Shown: positions 1,978-64,000 of the stretch, one piece after another
Layout of the letters: each line of letters begins with the position of its first letter
Position numbering within the stretch: position 1 is the first letter of the stretch
DNA from: Deltaproteobacteria bacterium
Lineage (GTDB): Bacteria > Desulfobacterota > GWC2-55-46 > S146-80
NCBI GenBank assembly: GCA_015492305.1
Contig: WGFJ01000140.1
Span: forward strand, 287 to 64,286
Direction: 5' to 3'
DNA: 64,000 nt
Made by a program: the position numbers and the translations under genes
Notes under the pieces: generated by a model
Told to the model about the DNA's origin: nothing
What the model saw: only the letters and a program-made list of their open reading frames with translations
Database searches by the model: none

Positions 1978-3662
1978 CGGGTAAGTCCCAGTTCCTTTTT
2001 GACCGCCTCGATCTTCTTCAGGACCTCATCCCTCTTCTCGAGGTCGTAGGACCTCTCATAGAGTTCCAGGGCCTTCTCCTTCATGCTCTTCTTGTAGTAA
2101 GCATCTCCAAGGTGTTCGGTTATGATGGGATCGTCAGGGGTATAACGGACAGCCTTCTCAAGGAGTTCTATGGCCTTCTCGTAGTTGCCCTTCTTGAAGT
2201 AGACCCAGCCAAGGCTGTCGATGATGTAACCACTGTTTGGCTTTATCTCCAGGGCCTTCTTTATCAACCTCTCTGCCTCATCAAGGAGGATACCCTTCTC
2301 CGCATAGGTGTAGCCAAGGTAGTTGAGGGCCTCCGCAAAGTCAGGTTTGAGGCTTATGCTCTTTTTCATCGCCTCTATCATCTTCTCGTCTTCGTCAAGG
2401 TCGTCGTAGAGGACACCCAGGGTAAAGTAAAGGTAGGGGTCATCGGGGTGGAGGGAAAGGGCCCTCTTGATACTCTCTATACCCTCCCTGATCCTCCCCG
2501 CCTCCTTGTAGACATTGGCAAGGATCCTGTAGACATCCACATTCTTTGTCTTCTTCGCAACCCCCTCAAAGTAGCTTATGGCCTCGTCAAGCATCCCCAT
2601 CTCCTTATAGATCATGGCTATCTGCAAGAGGGCATCCCTGTAAACAGGTGATGATGGGGGGATGGGCTTCAATACCTCAAGGGCCTTCTCATACTCACCC
2701 TTCTGGCTGTAGGCCACTCCAAGATAGTACCTCACCTCATGGGCCTGGGGATCTGCTGCAAGGGCAAGGTTGAACTGGGTTATGGCCTCATCCACCTTCC
2801 CCTGTTCCATGTATATGAGGCCTATCTTCACCATGGCGTCGACCTTGTTGCTGCCGAAGCGCTCAAGCTCCCTGTACTCCTTTATGGCCTCCTCGTACCT
2901 CTTCTCCCTTATGAGGAGCTGACCCAGCCTGCGGCGGAGGTTTTCATTGCCAGGCCTCAGCTGGAGCGCCCTCTTGTAGGCCTCTATGGCCTTATCCCTC
3001 TTGTTCATAAACTCATAGACAAGGCCAAGGTCTATCAGGGCACCGTAGAAGTCGGGGTGATACTCAAGGGCCTTGAGCAGATACTCTTCGGCCTTCTTGT
3101 AGTCGCCCTTGTCCGCATAGGCCCTTCCAAGGTAGTAATGGGCCATGACAGAATCGGGCTTTCTCTCCTTGTATTTGAGGAGGATCTCAATGGCCTTGTC
3201 ATACTCCTTGAGATCGCTGTAGAGGGCAGAGAGGAGTATGTAGGCCTTCTCGTTATCCGGATCGAGCTGGAGGACCTTCTTATACTCCTCTATGGCATCC
3301 CTTGTCCTCTTCTGGGCCGTATAGAGATCGCCAAGGAGGAGGTGGGCCTTACTGTAATCCTCGTGTTCAAGTGCCTCCTTGAGTTCCTTGATGGCCTCCT
3401 CTATCAGCCCCTTCCTCAGGTAGAGGGAGGCAAGCTCTGTGTGGAGGAGGGCAGAGAAGGGATCGGCCTTGAGGGCCTTCTTATACTCGGCGATGGCCTT
3501 GTCTATCTTCCCTTCTTTCAGGTAGAGCTGGGCTATGGCGTAGTGCTCATAGGGGTTACCACTCCTTGAAAAGAAGGAGAAGGCCCTGGCTTGAGAAAGG
3601 GGAAAAAAGAAAAGGGATAGGGTTATGATTGCAATAAAAAAGGACTTCCTATATATTAACAT
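1974..3662 (-). CDS. tetratricopeptide (TPR) repeat protein with N-terminal signal/anchor
   Basis: About 15 tandem 34-aa repeats with the A/L/Y/G/P pattern (…AxxxYxxALxxDP…). Hydrophobic N-terminus. Confidence 0.85.
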   Translation of the reverse strand: MLIYRKSFFIAIITLSLFFFPLSQARAFSFFSRSGNPYEHYAIAQLYLKEGKIDKAIAEYKKALKADPFSALLHTELASLYLRKGLIEEAIKELKEALEHEDYSKAHLLLGDLYTAQKRTRDAIEEYKKVLQLDPDNEKAYILLSALYSDLKEYDKAIEILLKYKERKPDSVMAHYYLGRAYADKGDYKKAEEYLLKALEYHPDFYGALIDLGLVYEFMNKRDKAIEAYKRALQLRPGNENLRRRLGQLLIREKRYEEAIKEYRELERFGSNKVDAMVKIGLIYMEQGKVDEAITQFNLALAADPQAHEVRYYLGVAYSQKGEYEKALEVLKPIPPSSPVYRDALLQIAMIYKEMGMLDEAISYFEGVAKKTKNVDVYRILANVYKEAGRIREGIESIKRALSLHPDDPYLYFTLGVLYDDLDEDEKMIEAMKKSISLKPDFAEALNYLGYTYAEKGILLDEAERLIKKALEIKPNSGYIIDSLGWVYFKKGNYEKAIELLEKAVRYTPDDPIITEHLGDAYYKKSMKEKALELYERSYDLEKRDEVLKKIEAVKKELGLTR

Positions 3663-3715: not shown

Positions 3716-4900
3716 ATGGAAACCCTGACGGCATTGCTCCTCATAGCCATCATCTCCTATGTGAGTAACAGGATCACCCCTGTCCTTGTGAGGCTCCCCA
3801 TAGGGGCCCAGCATGTCCTGTTTACAGGCACAGAATACCTCTTTCTCGGACTCCTCCTCGGTCCTTATCTGATAGGCTTTTTGTCGAAGGAGGTCCTTGA
3901 CCAACTCAGACCCTTTGTCAGTCTTGCCCTGGGTTGGATCGGACTCCTCTACGGTCTCCAGTTCAACTGGCGGGACATAAGGACCTTTCCCCTCATCTAC
4001 ATGCCCATAGCCTTCCTCCAGGCCCTGATAACCATGGGTATAGTCTTCATTGTCTTCTACCCTGTACTCGGTTATCTCCTTGGAGGGAACAGGCTCCTCT
4101 ATCCCCTTCTCATTGCCCTTTCCGCATCGGCCTCCCTCACCTCACCCTCTGCAATTGCGGTCCTTCACAGGAGGGTGGAGATAAAGGAAAGGGACCTCGT
4201 CACCCTTGTCAGGTACATATCCGGCATAGATAGCCTGATAGGTATAACCATCTTCGGCCTCACCTTTGCCATCTTCCACATCACCTACGGCTACAACCAG
4301 GGACTCCTACCACTGGAGTGGTTCCTGCTCACCATCGGCCTATCCCTCTTCCTTGCCATGATCTTTAACCTCTGCCTGCTCCTCCCTTTAACGAGCAATG
4401 AGTTTCTCGCTGTAACAACGGGGATGGTGGTATTCTCCAGCGGTGTGGCCTCCTTCCTCTACCTCTCTCCCCTCTTTGTGAGCATGGTCATGGGCCTCAT
4501 CATCGCGAATACCTCTTCAAAGCGTGAGATCCTCTATGAGAACCTGGTGAGGGGAGAAAGGCCCTTCTACATCATCTTCGTGATCATAGTTGGAGGGCTA
4601 TGGACTGTCGAGCCCCTCTGGGGAGGCATAGGGGCCCTCATATACACCCTTGCCAGGGTGGCCGGGAAGTACCTTGGAGGGATATACGCTACCGCGATCT
4701 TCAAACCCCCCTTTCCCATACCCAGAGACCTTGGCCTTGCCCTGCTCTCCCAGGGAGGGGTTGCCATTGCCATAGCAGCAAGCCTCCAGCAGACATACCA
4801 GACCACCCTCACGCCCACAGTAATGACCATCATCCTCACAGGGGTCATCATAAACGAATTCCTCGGTCCCAGATACCTTATGAAGGTCCTGAGCAAATGA
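3716..4900 (+). CDS. cation:proton antiporter (Na+/H+ exchanger family)
   Basis: Polytopic membrane protein of about 12 TM segments with a CPA-family layout. Confidence 0.6.
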   Translation: METLTALLLIAIISYVSNRITPVLVRLPIGAQHVLFTGTEYLFLGLLLGPYLIGFLSKEVLDQLRPFVSLALGWIGLLYGLQFNWRDIRTFPLIYMPIAFLQALITMGIVFIVFYPVLGYLLGGNRLLYPLLIALSASASLTSPSAIAVLHRRVEIKERDLVTLVRYISGIDSLIGITIFGLTFAIFHITYGYNQGLLPLEWFLLTIGLSLFLAMIFNLCLLLPLTSNEFLAVTTGMVVFSSGVASFLYLSPLFVSMVMGLIIANTSSKREILYENLVRGERPFYIIFVIIVGGLWTVEPLWGGIGALIYTLARVAGKYLGGIYATAIFKPPFPIPRDLGLALLSQGGVAIAIAASLQQTYQTTLTPTVMTIILTGVIINEFLGPRYLMKVLSK

Positions 4901-42806: not shown

Positions 42807-42974
42807 CCAGACCCCCTACTTCAAAATTTGTAGTAAGCATGTAGTATGCCATAGATACCCAGGAAAGTCAATCCTTATAGAACCACAGGCCATGAACCTA
42901 TTTTTTACCATTGTTCTCAACCAGTCAAGCCTTTTGTCTTGTAAAAACCTCGCTCAGAAGAGAAAATATACCGG

Positions 42975-47724: not shown

Positions 47725-49473
47725 ATGGAGAATTCAGAGATAGCAAGGATCCTCAACGAGATCGCCGATCTTCTGGAGATCAAGGGCGACAACCCCTTCA
47801 GGATACGCTCCTACAGGAATGCAGCCCTCACCATAGAGAACCTGCCCTTCCACCTGGAGACAATGGTAAGGGAGGATGAGTCAAGACTGGACGAAATACC
47901 CAGGATAGGTAAGGGGCTCCACGAAAAGATAGTGGAGATAGTGAATACAGGAAGGTGCAGGTACCATGAAGACCTCCTGAAGGAGATACCCCATTCCCTC
48001 CTCGATCTCCTCAGGATCTCCGGTCTCGGACCGAAGAAGGTCCAGACCCTGTGGAAGGAGCTTGGTGTCACCAGTATCGACGACCTCGAGAGGGTGCTTA
48101 AGGCCGGCCTCATAAAGAAACTCCCCGGCATGGGGGCAAAGACGGAGGAGAAGATCCTGAGGTCCCTTGAGGAATTCAAGAAAAGGATGGGAAGGTTCAA
48201 GCTTGCAACCGCCCTCACCTACGCCCAGGCCCTTGTCTCCTATCTGCGGGAACTGGACGGTATCTACCAGGTGGAGCCTGCAGGCAGTCTGAGGAGGAGG
48301 AAGGACACCATAGGTGACATCGATATCCTTGTTACCTGCAGAAAGGGAGTCCCTGTGATGGAGAGGTTCGTGAATTACAGGGAGGTCAGGGAGGTCCTCG
48401 CAAAGGGTGATACCAAATCCAGTGTCATCCTCAAGTGCGGGATCCAGACCGATCTAAGGGTCCTGAGCAAGGAATCGTTCGGGGCGGCCCTCCATTACTT
48501 CACCGGCTCAAAGAACCACAACATAGCCATAAGGGAGAGGGCCAGGAAGAGGGGACTCAAGATAAGCGAATACGGCATATTCAGGGAGGATACAGGTGAG
48601 AGGATAGGAGGGGAGAGGGAGGAGGATGTCTTCAGGTCTGTGGGACTGCCCTTCATAGCCCCTGAACTCAGAGAGAACAGGGGAGAGATAGAGGCAGCAG
48701 AAGAGGGAAGGCTCCCGAAGCTCATCGAGTTGAGGGATATCAAGGGGGACCTCCAGATCCATACAAGGGAGAGTGACGGGGCAAACACCATTGAGGAGAT
48801 GGCTGCCTCGGCCCTTGAGATGGGTTACCAATACATCGCCATAACGGAGCACTCAAAGGCCGTTAGCGTTGCAAAGGGGCTCGATGAGGGAAGGGTCCTT
48901 GAACATATGAAGAGGATTGAAGAGGTGGACAGGAGGTTCAAGGAGAAGGGTCTGAGGGTGCTCAAGGGGATAGAGGTGGACATACTCCCCTCCGGAGACC
49001 TCGATCTGGATGGTGAGGTCCTGAAGAGGCTCGATATCGTTGTCGGCGCCGTCCATTCGAAGTTCAACATGACAAAGGAGGAGATGACGGAAAGGGTGAT
49101 AAGGGCCATTGAGACGGGCCTTATCGACATCCTTGCCCATCCCACAGGAAGGCTCATAGGTGAGAGGGAGCCCTACCCCATCGACATGGAGAGGGTCATG
49201 GATGTGGCAAAGAGGTTCGGCGTCATCATGGAGCTCAATGCCTATCCCGATCGCCTTGACCTCAACGACATCCACTGCAAGCTTGCCAAGGACAAGGGGG
49301 TCATGGTGGCCATCTCCACAGACTCACACAACAGGATGCACCTGTGGAACATGAAGTACGGGATCTACACGGCAAGAAGGGGATGGCTCGAGAAGGAGGA
49401 TGTACTCAACACAAGGAGCTACACGGACCTCTTGAAGGTCATAGAGGAGAGGAGGGGGCTTCCCTCTCCATGA
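47725..49473 (+). CDS. polX: DNA polymerase X with C-terminal PHP 3'-5' exonuclease domain
   Basis: N-terminal HhH (IADLLEIKG…FRIRSYRNAA), Pol-beta nucleotidyltransferase GS…DIDIL, and C-terminal PHP His motifs. Confidence 0.9.
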   Translation: MENSEIARILNEIADLLEIKGDNPFRIRSYRNAALTIENLPFHLETMVREDESRLDEIPRIGKGLHEKIVEIVNTGRCRYHEDLLKEIPHSLLDLLRISGLGPKKVQTLWKELGVTSIDDLERVLKAGLIKKLPGMGAKTEEKILRSLEEFKKRMGRFKLATALTYAQALVSYLRELDGIYQVEPAGSLRRRKDTIGDIDILVTCRKGVPVMERFVNYREVREVLAKGDTKSSVILKCGIQTDLRVLSKESFGAALHYFTGSKNHNIAIRERARKRGLKISEYGIFREDTGERIGGEREEDVFRSVGLPFIAPELRENRGEIEAAEEGRLPKLIELRDIKGDLQIHTRESDGANTIEEMAASALEMGYQYIAITEHSKAVSVAKGLDEGRVLEHMKRIEEVDRRFKEKGLRVLKGIEVDILPSGDLDLDGEVLKRLDIVVGAVHSKFNMTKEEMTERVIRAIETGLIDILAHPTGRLIGEREPYPIDMERVMDVAKRFGVIMELNAYPDRLDLNDIHCKLAKDKGVMVAISTDSHNRMHLWNMKYGIYTARRGWLEKEDVLNTRSYTDLLKVIEERRGLPSP

Positions 49474-49479
49474 GCCCCC

Positions 49480-51084
49480 TTACTCCTCGTAGAAGCTCTT
49501 GAGGAGCTTTATCCTGCTCGGGTGGCGAAGCCTCTTTATGGCCTTGGCTTCTATCTGCCTTATCCTCTCCCTTGTAACACCAAGGACCTGTCCCACATCC
49601 TCGAGGGTGTGATCATGCTTTTCGCCTATCCCGAACCTCATCCTCAGCACCTTCTCCTCCCTCGGGCTCAATGTGGCAAGGACCTTGCGCGTGAGCTCTG
49701 CAAGATTCCTCTCCACCGCATAGTCTGCAGGTGATACGGCCTTCTCATCCTCTATGAAGTCTCCGAGGGAACTCTCCTCATCGTCACCTATGGGTGTCTC
49801 AAGGGACAGGGTCTGCTTTGTGAGCCTCAGGGTCTTCCTCACCTTGGATGCAGGTATGCCAAGCCTCTCACCGATCTCTTCAGGGGTTGGCTCCCTGCCG
49901 AGCTCCTTCAGGAGCTGCCTTGAGGTCTGAAGGAGCCTGTTTATGGTCTCTATCATGTGGACAGGGATCCTTATGGTCCTGCCATAATCTGCAATGGCCC
50001 TTGTTATGGCCTGACGGATCCACCAGGTCGCATAGGTGCTGAACTTGTAACCCTTTCTGTAATCGAACTTGTCCACCGCCTTCATAAGGCCTATGTTGCC
50101 TTCCTGAACCAGATCGGAGAACTTGAGGCCCAGGTTCACATACTTCTTGGCGATGCTGATGACCAGACGCAGGTTGGCTTCGATGAGCTTGTTCTTGGCC
50201 CTCTTGACCATCCACTTGTACACCTTCAGGTCCTTGGTAAGGGCCTTGAGTTCCTCCCATCCCATACCAAGGGTCCTTGTGGCAACCTCTATCCTGCGCC
50301 TTGCCCTCTCCTTCCTCCTCTCATCCTCGCCTCTGGCGATGATCTCCTGCTCCTTTTCAAGGAGATTGACAAGCCTTTCCAGCCTCTCAGCCATCCTCTC
50401 TATCCAGTTCTGACTTATGTTCAGATCGTAGAGGATCTTCTGTATCTGCCTGTTGAGGACGGTCAGCCTCCCCTTGAGGGATGCCCTCCTCCGTGGAGGG
50501 AGATCCCTGGCTGAAAGGGCCTCAAGGACCTGCCTCTTCTTTGCCGACAGGCCCTCCAGTTCCTCTATCTTCTTCAGGACCCCCTCCACATACTCCTCGT
50601 TGTAGGAGATCCCCTCCTCTATATCTTCGATGAAGTCTTTGAGGGAAACCTTTCCCTTCTTGAGCAATCTTCCAAACTTGAGGACCTCCCTTTCTGCAAA
50701 GATGGTGGAAAGGAGGAGCTTCCTCATCTCCCTCTTTCCTTCCTCCATCTGCTTTGCCAGCATGATCTCTGCCTCACGGCTGAGCAGCGGTATGGCCCCC
50801 ATCTCCCTCATGTATATCCTCACCGGGTCCTCTGTCCGCTCTATCTCAAAGAGTTCCTCCTTTTCCTCTTCCTCCTCAAGCTCATACTCCTCCTTTGCCT
50901 TGGAGGCATCATCGACCACATCTATCCCCATCTCCCCGAGGGTCTCAAGGAAGTTATCTATCTCGTCTACGGAAAAATCCTCATCAGGTATGGCATCATT
51001 TATCTCATCATAGGTGAGGAACCCTCTGCTCCTACCCTTGTTTATGAGCTGTCTCACATCCTCCTTTATATCCTTTGACATCAA
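49480..51084 (-). CDS. rpoD: RNA polymerase primary sigma factor
   Basis: Region 1.1 through region 4 present, including the RpoD box and …[28 protein letters not shown]…. Confidence 0.95.
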
Positions 51085-51213
51085 GACCTCCTTAATGTAA
51101 AGTATTCTACATCAAGATTACTACAAAAGCCCCTCACTGTCAAGTTGAGGGCCTTTTCCCTTGACATCGGGAAAGGGATTAGGTATTTTTGTAGTAAAAG
51201 GAAGGTAGAAACT

Positions 51214-51411
51214 ATGGCTAAAGCCCCTGCTGGGAAAAAGATCCTCAACACCCATATATCGGTTGAAGAGTACAACTTTTTAAAAGATATGGCAGCGAGA
51301 AACGCTATGACTATTACAATGTACCTCAGGGGTTTGATAAGGGCCGAAATGGACAAGTTGAGTAAAGAGTCTAACCTCAAAAGACTCCCCAAGGTTCAGG
51401 GCCTTAGATAA
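51214..51411 (+). CDS. putative small ribbon-helix-helix (CopG/Arc-like) protein
   Basis: A 65-aa ORF with a beta-strand (KKILNTHIS) followed by two helices. AAGGAAGG ribosome-binding site. Codon usage (AGA, TTA, ATT, ACT) differs from the rest of the genome. Confidence 0.3.
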   Translation: MAKAPAGKKILNTHISVEEYNFLKDMAARNAMTITMYLRGLIRAEMDKLSKESNLKRLPKVQGLR

Positions 51412-51468
51412 CCTTCCAAATTATATTAATATAATACATTCAGGACCAAAAGACAAGGAAAATTTTCC

Positions 51469-51497
51469 TTGACACTTTATCAAGGATGGTTTAAAAG
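51469..51497 (+). promoter_or_regulatory. putative sigma70-like promoter for rplM-rpsI (TTGACA-17-TAAAAG)
   Basis: Perfect -35 TTGACA with a 17-nt spacer and an imperfect -10, lying 40 bp upstream of rplM. Confidence 0.3.
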
Positions 51498-51536
51498 ATC
51501 CTTCTACTTTTCGAAAAAGACTGGAGGGTTTCCGTC

Positions 51537-51971
51537 ATGATGAAAACCACTTTCCCGACAAAGGAAGGGATAGAAAGGAAGTGGTTCCTTGTTGATGCAC
51601 AGGGTAAGACCCTTGGAAGGCTGGCATCACAGATAGCCAAGATCCTGAGGGGGAAGACAAAGCCAACCTACACGCCCCATCTTGACACCGGTGACTTTGT
51701 GGTTGTTGTCAACGCCGAGAAGGTGGCTGTAACAGGCAGAAAGCTCACGGACAAGGTCTACTACTGGCATTCCATGTACCCAGGGGGGCTTAAGTCAAGG
51801 ACCCTGAAGCAGCTACTGGAGGAAAAGCCTGAAGAGGTGATAATCCGTGCCGTAAAGGGGATGCTGCCCAAGACGCCCCTTGGACGGAAGATGCTGAAGA
51901 AGCTCAAGGTCTACAGAGGACCAGATCATCCCCATCAGGCCCAGAGGCCTCAGGAGATAGACCTGGTTTAG
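51537..51971 (+). CDS. rplM: 50S ribosomal protein L13
   Basis: L13 signature ([16 protein letters not shown]…). Confidence 0.95.
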
Positions 51972-62652: not shown

Positions 62653-64000
62653 ATGTCCAGGCTGGTAGTGGTATCACTGCTCCTCCTTTCCATCCTTGGC
62701 TGCGGTAAGGATACATCCGTAGAGGCTGAAAAGCACTTCAAGAGGGCCACAGAATATCAGCAAGAAGGCAATCTGAGGGGTGCATTCATAGAGCTAAAGA
62801 ACGCCGTGGATCTCGCACCTGATCGGGTGGACTACAGGAAGGAGCTTGCCCTTGTCTACTACAAGCTCGGACGGTATGAATCGGCCCTCAAGGAGTTTGA
62901 GGCCGTCCTCAAGGAAGACCCTGCCTCAAAGGATTCCCTCCTTTACATCAGCAGGATATACCTTGAGAAAGGCCAGTTCGACAAGGCCCTTGAATCTGCC
63001 CAGAGGCTCCTCGATGCAGGGGGGCCATCAAGAGAGGCCCTCTATGTAATGGCCTCTGCACGGATGGGCAAAGGGGACCTCCAGAAGGCAAAGAAGATGT
63101 ACTTGAAGATCCTTGAGATGGAGCCCAGTGACAGTAAGGCCCTCTTGGGGCTTGCCAGGGTCTACACAGAAGAGGGGAACTACGAGGAGGCGGAAAGGCA
63201 GATCAAGAGGGCAAAGGAAGGTGGAGAGTCCATCGATATCCTCTACGCCGAGGCAGAGCTTGAGGCCAGGCGCTCAAGGTACAAGGAGGCTGCAGAGATA
63301 CTCAAGAGGATCCTGGAGATGGACCCCGATCAGCCAAGGGCCTATATACTGCTCACCACAGCCTATCTTGGCCTTAAGGACTTTGAGAAGGCCAAGGAGG
63401 AGGCTGAGGAACTCATCAAGAGATATCCCAAAAGGCCAGAAGGTTATTACTTCAAAGGCCTCTCCCTCCTTTCAGGAACCAACAGGGTAAAGGAGGCCAT
63501 CGAGTACCTTCAGAAGGCAACCACCATCTATCCTGGATACCTTCTTGCCCATTACTTCCTTGCCCTTGCCCACTACAAGGATCGCAACTACGAACAGGCC
63601 ATAAGCGAACTCCAGATGGTCCTCAACATAGATCCCAACTTCCACAGGGCCCGCTTACCCCTTGCCATCCTCTACCTCACAAAGGGGTATCTCGACGATG
63701 CCCTCAGGGAGGCGGGAAGGGCCGTTGAAAAGGACCCCAAGAATCCCCTTGCCCACAATATCCTTGGAACAGCCTACATCATGAAGGGGGAACACGACAG
63801 GGGGCTTGAAGAGTTCAAAAAGGCCCTTGACCTGGACCCGGACTTCACCGACACCTACGCAAGGCTTGGTGGTTACTACCTCACAACGGGTAACATCGAG
63901 GAGGCCATAAAGGAGTACAGGGCAGCCCTGAAGATAGATCCAAGACTCCTCAACATAAGGATCTTCCTCGGAATGGCCCACATGAGGAAGGGAGAGTACG
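62653..64000 (+). CDS. TPR-repeat lipoprotein (PrsT-like, PEP-CTERM system type), 5' part; continues beyond the window
   Basis: Lipoprotein signal (LLLSILGCGKD) followed by uninterrupted TPR repeats to the window edge, with no stop codon. Confidence 0.7.
   Translation, partial: MSRLVVVSLLLLSILGCGKDTSVEAEKHFKRATEYQQEGNLRGAFIELKNAVDLAPDRVDYRKELALVYYKLGRYESALKEFEAVLKEDPASKDSLLYISRIYLEKGQFDKALESAQRLLDAGGPSREALYVMASARMGKGDLQKAKKMYLKILEMEPSDSKALLGLARVYTEEGNYEEAERQIKRAKEGGESIDILYAEAELEARRSRYKEAAEILKRILEMDPDQPRAYILLTTAYLGLKDFEKAKEEAEELIKRYPKRPEGYYFKGLSLLSGTNRVKEAIEYLQKATTIYPGYLLAHYFLALAHYKDRNYEQAISELQMVLNIDPNFHRARLPLAILYLTKGYLDDALREAGRAVEKDPKNPLAHNILGTAYIMKGEHDRGLEEFKKALDLDPDFTDTYARLGGYYLTTGNIEEAIKEYRAALKIDPRLLNIRIFLGMAHMRKGEY

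Follow-up and report, generated by a model that had tools for sequence, protein, structure and literature searches.

Small ribbon-helix-helix regulators and their possible role in the control of primary sigma factors

The described proteins closest in fold and layout to the one reported here are the classical small ribbon-helix-helix (RHH) autorepressors, Arc and Mnt (phage P22) and CopG (plasmid pMV158). The gene in question lies at 51214-51411 on the plus strand of a 64-kb (64,000 nucleotide) stretch of contig WGFJ01000140.1 from a Deltaproteobacteria bacterium, the whole of which is called the window below. It encodes 65 amino acids (aa) and is divergent from rpoD, and its probable function, judging from its surroundings and conservation, is dedicated control of the housekeeping sigma factor. 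Like Arc, Mnt and CopG (about 45-65 aa), the product is small and has a strand-helix-helix order, and repeated boxes overlap the gene's own promoter. By this fold and layout it appears to resemble them, and the Arc and CopG chains matched its structural model in Foldseek with a root-mean-square deviation (rmsd) of 1.3-1.7 Å. Unlike them, the window protein is chromosomal and conserved beside rpoD, and it has no significant sequence similarity to any of the three. Boxes of the window type are split over two divergent promoters, 69-85 bp apart, whereas theirs form one compact operator of 13-21 bp.

The best sequence match, itself sub-threshold, was to the relaxosome accessory proteins NikA and MbpA, over the strand and helix A. 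However, there was no relaxase or oriT context at the window gene. The top structural match was CdbA of Myxococcus xanthus, an essential RHH nucleoid protein and c-di-GMP receptor that is encoded with the PilZ protein CdbB (PMC7156744). The cdbA paper makes no mention of rpoD or sigA, and its seven occurrences of "sigma" are unrelated to such a link (PMC7156744). CdbA is likewise a small RHH protein in an essential context, and its PilZ neighbour is shared by three of the loci described below (L011, L027 and L031; loci of other family members are given as L numbers). However, the Foldseek match had 15% identity and a TM-score of 0.44, and CdbA was not found in PDB sequence searches. There is also no PilZ gene near the window gene, such neighbours occurring in some loci of the Acidobacteriota type only.

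In Escherichia coli the rpsU-dnaG-rpoD operon carries a LexA site and an internal sigma-32 promoter, and the sigA operon of Bacillus subtilis has multiple promoters. The target, primary sigma supply, would be the same as at our locus, but control in these species is exerted via global regulators and alternative sigma factors. 6S RNA (SsrS), which is encoded directly downstream of a family member in one lineage (L034), also regulates the availability of the sigma-70 holoenzyme, though it is an RNA mimicking an open promoter and not a protein. We know of no dedicated repressor encoded next to rpoD, and full-text literature searches recovered no description of an RHH-rpoD link.

An unnamed family of small RHH proteins

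The small open reading frame (ORF) is a real gene under strong purifying selection. In pairwise comparisons among the window and its two closest relatives, L006 and L009, synonymous sites were saturated (0.79-0.98 differences per site) and non-synonymous differences were only 0.10-0.16 per site. The gene has a good ribosome-binding site (AAGGAAGG, 51198..51205, plus strand), with GGAAGG 8 nt ahead of the ATG, as the initial annotation had described. That annotation had also named conservation in relatives as a check on the ORF, with the possibility that the region is simply promoter DNA. The selection and the relatives found do not uphold that possibility. A word-indexed search of 5.8 billion proteins recovered the protein itself and one 74%-identical protein, and nothing more. 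An exhaustive HMMER scan of 1.84 billion representatives recovered 55 relatives at E<=0.001, 15 of them at E<=1e-10. The relatives carried no Pfam domain and their sole annotation was "hypothetical protein". They share the core PxGK(R/K)(V/I)LNTHIS-EE(H/Y)-FLK--A----MT(V/I)TM-LR-LIR-EM, which is complete in the window protein, and their consensus is PxGKrVLNTHISxEEHxFLKxxAxxxxMTVTMyLRNLIRrEM. In the strand, N12, T13 and H14 are invariant or near-invariant, as are T33 and T35 at the start of helix B; by analogy with other RHH proteins, these residues are expected to read DNA.

The structure was modelled as a monomer with AlphaFold2 from a 41-sequence alignment, with a predicted local distance difference test score (pLDDT) of 87.4. 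Residues 1-16 are extended and comprise an N-terminal arm and the beta-strand (KKILNTHIS), followed by helix A (17-29), a turn (NAMT, 30-33), helix B (34-56) and a variable C-terminal tail. The strand was modelled as extended coil, as expected for a monomer. A first run from a 2-sequence alignment had returned one long helix and was replaced by this one. The top matches of the model in the PDB were nearly all RHH proteins (CdbA, Arc, ORF56, NikA, StnY, KacA, CopA, TacA, CopG, AtaR, PutA and ParD), with Foldseek probabilities of 0.75-0.93 and, in many cases, an rmsd of 1-2 Å over 41-47 residues. In the viral library phage Arc-type RHH proteins ranked first. The model therefore supports placement in the RHH (Arc/MetJ/CopG) fold superfamily, in agreement with the RHH-like product first predicted.

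No curated family reached its threshold. The NikA-like family (PF21983) scored 14.5 bits against a cut-off of 27, with a weak match in 30 of 41 family members. RHH_4 matched weakly in nine of the 41, RHH_7, ParG and ParD were also weak, and Pfam families other than NikA-like had E-values of about 0.003 or worse. The NCBIfam model MbpA (NF041418) was sub-threshold as well (15.3 against 90 bits), and RelB (NF046040) reached 16.4 against 50 bits, for a paralogous relative only. Sequence and profile searches of the PDB yielded marginal RHH matches only, to AvtR and ORF56. The protein is thus a member of an unnamed, rpoD-linked family of small RHH proteins that belongs to no curated family.

Linkage to rpoD across lineages

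Locus DNA around the family members was fetched from genome and metagenome collections, where strict pattern scans gave three genome loci and six metagenome loci. Sigma-70 genes were located by tblastn with the window RpoD and by precomputed Pfam hits. Context was readable in 18 lineages, and in 12 of these the small gene lies beside or near a sigma-70/rpoD gene. The two genes diverge in the window, L006 and L009. They run in tandem on one strand, with the small gene immediately ahead of the sigma-70 gene, in L010 (an Acidobacteriota metagenome-assembled genome), L011, L014, L015, L016, L018, L027/28 and L031, and the sigma-70 gene is 1.9 kb downstream in L029/30. Another lineage (L034) has the gene upstream of 6S RNA and not beside rpoD, and in the remaining five (L019, L020, L023, L025 and L033) it sits in phage-like arrays of small same-strand genes. 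The contigs of L008, L012, L013, L017 and L032 were too short to judge.

All neighbours other than the sigma-70 gene vary between lineages. The flanks hold PolX and rplM in the window, a PF1765-like gene, DivIVA and a BNR protein in L006, and PilZ in several Acidobacteriota-type loci. In L006 the PF1765-like gene and DivIVA occupy the side where the window has PolX. As rplM is found on its side of the gene in the window lineage only, the rplM link implied by the first description of the region as an rpoD/rplM gap is accidental. In L018 a 26-nt overlap (4185-4210) between the small ORF and that of sigma-70 suggests co-transcription and possibly coupled translation.

The order of genes in L034 is topA-dprA (divergent), the small RHH gene, a strong terminator, the 6S/SsrS RNA and the 5′ end of 16S rRNA (rrn). 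Within the region 3205-3517 the 6S RNA occupies 3257-3436, immediately after the terminator and ahead of the 16S rRNA 5′ end (from 3490), and its Rfam score of 62.8 bits (E = 2.7e-12) exceeds the gathering score of 46.4. 6S RNA acts by sequestering the sigma-70 holoenzyme, so that even this one exception among the chromosomal lineages leads back to the same functional node.

The phage-like loci contained a CI-like S24 repressor, phage replication-initiator families, a DNA methylase, a deoxynucleoside monophosphate kinase and a MazG-like gene. A rough neighbour-joining tree built on the 44-residue core placed the rpoD-linked members apart from four of the five phage-type members. The fifth, L023, fell beside L018 and L029.

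Conserved boxes in the divergent promoters

The 129-bp intergenic stretch between the divergent rpoD and small gene contains an 11-bp inverted repeat, which was correctly described at the outset. The reverse complement of its left arm, TTACTACAAAA (51118-51128), is exactly the right arm, TTTTGTAGTAA (51187-51197), and 58 nt separate the two. With looser matching the arms lengthen to 24 nt at 75% (51105-51128 and 51187-51210). A perfect inverted repeat of at least 11 bp was obtained in 2 of 2000 shuffles of this stretch.

The left arm, which reads TTTTGTAGTAA on the minus strand, is a candidate operator that overlaps the spacer and the first -10 bases of a putative rpoD promoter (51115..51143, minus strand). 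This promoter consists of the -35 TTGACA (51143-51138), a 17-nt spacer and the -10 TAATCT (51120-51115). The right box, on the plus strand, runs from the last bases of the small-gene -10 over the site where transcription is expected to begin. The small-gene promoter (51161..51189, plus strand, score 10/12) has the -35 TTGACA (51161-66), 17 nt and the -10 TATTTT (51184-89). The two sigma-70-type promoters are thus back to back, with their -35 hexamers 17 bp apart in the window. The rpoD -35 TTGACA is kept in L006 and L009. The window's own rpoD -10 fell under the promoter-scan threshold; the homologue in L009 is TTGACA-17-TAAAAT, with a score of 11/12.

Only four blocks of the intergenic region are conserved in an alignment of the window, L006 and L009: the left box, the two TTGACA hexamers (51143-51138, minus; 51161-66, plus) and the block GGTATTTTTGTAGTAAAAG. 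The left box is kept in L006, with one mismatch, and in L009. The right box is part of the 15-mer GGTATTTTTGTAGTA (51182-51196), which is identical in the window, L006, L009 and L034 and is found nowhere else in 34 loci. The architecture of the small-gene promoter also recurs in L006, L009 and L034. Among the 34 loci the form TTTGTRGTAA was found solely at the small-gene promoter, including that of the distant tandem loci L010 and L018, where the copies are one- or two-mismatch versions. The L010 version is TAATTT-TGTGGTAA, and that of L018, TTCTACAAAATTTGTGGTAAAAT, is nearly palindromic and overlies a TTGTTA-17-TAAAAT promoter; in L016 the copy is degenerate. In total the box accompanies the small gene in seven lineages, with rpoD as a divergent or a tandem neighbour or with dprA and 6S RNA. 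This co-occurrence, whatever the neighbour, is the strongest reason to regard the box as an operator of the protein itself. The arm-to-arm distance is 69 bp in the window, 85 bp in L006 and 72 bp in L009, and the inverted repeat is therefore read as two separate promoter boxes and not as one folded element.

Within the window, four matches to the 11-mer box with at most one mismatch were found, against 0.29 expected. A recurrence of the motif near 42827-42836, in another divergent intergenic region, had been reported in the initial annotation, and there is indeed a copy at 42826-42836 with one mismatch. It begins the third intergenic box, ATTTGTAGTAAGCATGTAGTATG (42826..42848, plus strand), which has two TGTAGTA units 11 bp apart. 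On its minus-strand side lies an operon of a 205-aa gene of unknown function and a ComM-like gene, and on the plus strand rsmE. This copy may, from its sequence and position, mark a further target. The surrounding region (42816-42850) reads CTACTTCAAAATTTGTAGTAAGCATGTAGTATGCC, has an extra upstream CTAC...GTAG palindrome and is 10-20 nt from the start of the 205-aa gene, which precedes the ComM-like Mg-chelatase gene. Matches of TTGTAGTA at 2090-2100 and 62857-62864 were ruled out as regulatory sites, as they encode Tyr-Tyr-Lys in TPR-repeat genes and are a coding coincidence.

Origin of the small gene

The unusual codon usage that was first pointed out is real, only 0.2% of 65-codon pieces of window genes scoring as low. 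The small ORF has 43% GC, and its GC content at third codon positions (GC3) is 0.54 against a mean of 0.66 for window genes. However, the interpretation of this composition as a sign of recent foreign DNA was not sustained. The small protein is 74% and 71% identical to its two closest relatives and RpoD 74% and 72%, so that the two diverge in parallel. The GC3 of the small gene (0.54, 0.48 and 0.38 in the window, L006 and L009) tracks that of rpoD (0.71, 0.57 and 0.42). No toxin, replication, partition or integrase gene was found beside the window gene, which is surrounded by chromosomal housekeeping genes, and tblastn searches of INPHARED phages and PLSDB plasmids and scans of IMG/VR gave no plasmid or phage match. 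Given this parallel divergence, a GC3 in line with the host and the lack of mobile genes and matches, the gene is, on these sequence comparisons, best described as an old resident. More likely causes of its composition are weak translational selection, the amino acids it encodes and the AT-rich promoter island in which it lies. The distant family members in phage-like arrays are a trace of the foreign idea, and a remote phage origin of the whole family is possible.

Proposed function and alternative explanations

We favour, with moderate confidence, the explanation that an RHH protein from an rpoD-tied family occupies the boxes and so governs transcription from both its own and the rpoD promoter. 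Of the options raised in the initial annotation, a regulator at the rpoD promoter is the best fit to the comparative genomics, given the linkage in 12 lineages and the box in both divergent promoters. The small gene would be transcribed independently in the gap, divergently from rpoD, with one box by or over the -10 of each promoter. RHH dimers, or dimers of dimers, would bind the boxes via the N-terminal arm and beta-ribbon (GKK-ILNTHIS), and the bound protein would limit the access of RNA polymerase at both promoters. It would in this way autoregulate and tune rpoD transcription. As both promoters need sigma-70, the result would be a feedback loop on sigma-70 supply, which would be negative if the protein is a repressor. 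In L018 a shared promoter would drive both the small gene and the sigma-70 gene. That this protein occupies the box is inferred, as are the sign of its regulation and any influence on rpoD.

Several observations weigh against this explanation. The placement of the box relative to the -10 differs between the two window promoters, and the arm spacings (69, 85 and 72 bp) do not keep a conserved helical phase. Since the box overlaps -10 regions, its conservation could in part be promoter constraint. The structural model is of a monomer only. The largest rpoD-linked clade, which we call Acidobacteriota-type for its high GC and similarity to L010 (L011-L015, L027 and L031, with an N-terminal extension), has the same beta-strand residues without the box. 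In its place there is a TATAATTATA-type palindrome just upstream of the small-gene -35, perfect in L012, L014 and L027. Throughout the clade a conserved AT-rich TTAAATATAATTA lies directly upstream of the -35 TTGACA, and L012 and L027 have TCTTATTGACATAAGA around the -35. The small gene of this clade has its own intrinsic terminator, and its rpoD is preceded by GGAACC-N17/18-TCTGA/TCTAC, which is sigma-E/extracytoplasmic function (ECF)-like. Because of this terminator and separate promoter, regulation of rpoD is not obvious here. No operator common to all clades was found when their upstream regions were compared. As the Acidobacteriota-type clade keeps the strand residues without the box, either the family has no universal operator or some other factor binds the box.

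Two further features of the Acidobacteriota-type loci were recorded. The rpoD leader has a conserved CTGAAATAAA, the regions that hold the terminator and these motifs being 4162-4489 in L011, 354-720 in L014, 4168-4520 in L015 and 4192-4595 in L027. The small RHH gene is closely preceded by a gene for a PilZ-domain protein in L011 (2813-3301), L027 (2871-3667) and L031 (2444-2947).

The main rival to promoter control holds that the protein contacts sigma-70 or its holoenzyme as a modulator or anti-sigma-like factor, the box being no more than a part of the promoter or a site for a different factor. Adjacency to rpoD that persists even with separate transcription units would suit it, as would the pairing with 6S RNA, which also acts on the holoenzyme, in one lineage, the largest clade lacking the box despite identical strand residues, and the existence of phage-borne relatives, phages often encoding modulators of sigma-70. 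We nevertheless think it unlikely. All fold matches are DNA-binding RHH proteins, RHH domains bind DNA in nearly all solved cases, and the conserved positions are the DNA-contacting ones in Arc and CopG; moreover, the conserved box co-occurs with the gene in seven lineages beside any neighbour. We find it equally improbable that the protein is a general, multi-target RHH regulator or CdbA-like nucleoid protein, autoregulated through the box, whose adjacency to rpoD is conserved but neutral. The third box near unrelated genes at 42826, the rank of CdbA as top structural match, and the upstream PilZ gene of L011, L027 and L031, which recalls the cdbA-cdbB pair (PMC7156744), are consistent with such a role. 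However, adjacency in 12 lineages, in two orientations and with the other flanks changed, would be hard to keep without selection, a second box lies inside the rpoD promoter of the divergent loci, and there is no sequence similarity to CdbA.

The suggestion of a plasmid or toxin-antitoxin remnant fared worse. In its general form, a mobile-element remnant without host function (an orphan antitoxin, a plasmid copy-control or partition protein, or a phage repressor), it is largely refuted and we give it very little credence. Atypical codon usage and low GC, weak matches to RelB, MbpA, NikA and ParG/ParD, and distant relatives in phage-like arrays speak for it. Against these stand the strong purifying selection, synteny with rpoD across lineages at a divergence rate equal to that of RpoD, a GC3 that follows the host, the lack of toxin, replication, partition or integrase neighbours, and the lack of any match in INPHARED, PLSDB and IMG/VR. 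The RelB and ParD matches are sub-threshold, and no toxin partner was found in any locus, the neighbours including rpoD, rplM, a BNR protein and 6S RNA. Least probable of all, and hardly tenable, is a structured RNA or DNA element (a leader, attenuator or cruciform) with an incidental ORF. The hairpin and small palindrome first noticed between the arms do exist. The GC-rich hairpin AAAAGCCCCTCA...TGAGGGCCTTTT (51125..51157; arms 51125-51136 and 51146-51157) holds the rpoD -35 in its loop, and the CCCTT/AAGGG palindrome CCTTTTCCC / GGGAAAGGG (51152..51177; arms 51152-60 and 51169-77) flanks the small-gene -35. The region 51100-51215, folded as single-stranded DNA, has a strong predicted fold (z = -4.7), and the GC hairpin with its A and T runs has a terminator-like shape. 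However, L006 and L009, the closest relatives, lack both inner elements, and the spacing of the arms varies. Both -35 hexamers fall between the arms, which therefore cannot share one transcript and lie in different transcripts or in untranscribed DNA. With no Rfam match and an ORF under purifying selection in addition, a structural RNA or cruciform role is unlikely for the repeat and hairpins alike. The GC-rich hairpin is probably a lineage-specific feature with no function; as a terminator or attenuator it was ruled out, being not conserved and located between promoters.

Other features of the gap and its flanks

The gap between rpoD (minus) and rplM (plus) is 452 bp long (51085-51536) and, with 39.4% GC against 54.1% for the window, is the most AT-rich 452-bp stretch of the window. 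The rpoD gene (49480..51084, minus strand) encodes 534 aa when read from a TTG, and its product is a complete primary sigma-70 factor with regions 1.1 to 4 (Pfam Sigma70 r1_1, r1_2, r2, r3 and r4). A start at the ATG at 51081, behind GGAGG, is more likely than the TTG. A plus-strand promoter-like site at 51075-51103 was dropped, as it overlaps the rpoD start codon and is not kept in L006. PolX (a family-X DNA polymerase with a PHP domain, 47725-49473) is convergent with rpoD and 6 bp from its stop.

On the far side of the gap lies rplM (51537-51971, plus strand). A promoter-like site for rplM-rpsI consists of TTGACA (51469-74), 17 nt and TAAAAG (51492-97). A perfect 18-bp palindrome, CAAGGAAAATTTTCCTTG (51454-71), abuts it and a second, AAGGATGGTTTAAAAGATCCTT (51482-51503), overlies its -10. 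These palindromes may be a weak terminator of the small gene, an operator of the ribosomal-protein operon, or both. Over the whole 64-kb window the tRNA scan found no tRNA gene and no Rfam family, 6S RNA included, reached its gathering score; Rfam at permissive E-values gave no relevant match in the gap.

Implications

A broader proposal, which we put forward tentatively and with less conviction than the reading of the window locus, is that the family represents an unrecognised, dedicated feedback regulator of sigma-70 that is encoded beside rpoD or, in one lineage, 6S RNA and would set sigma-70 supply through boxes in its own and the rpoD promoter. It would be present in at least Acidobacteriota and several unclassified uncultured lineages, and its phage relatives may exploit the same node to redirect transcription in their hosts. 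The family adds an unnamed RHH group with chromosomal and phage branches to the catalogue of such proteins. Control of primary sigma levels is poorly understood outside a few model species, and the family provides a concrete, testable candidate regulator for poorly studied, mostly uncultured lineages, Acidobacteriota included.

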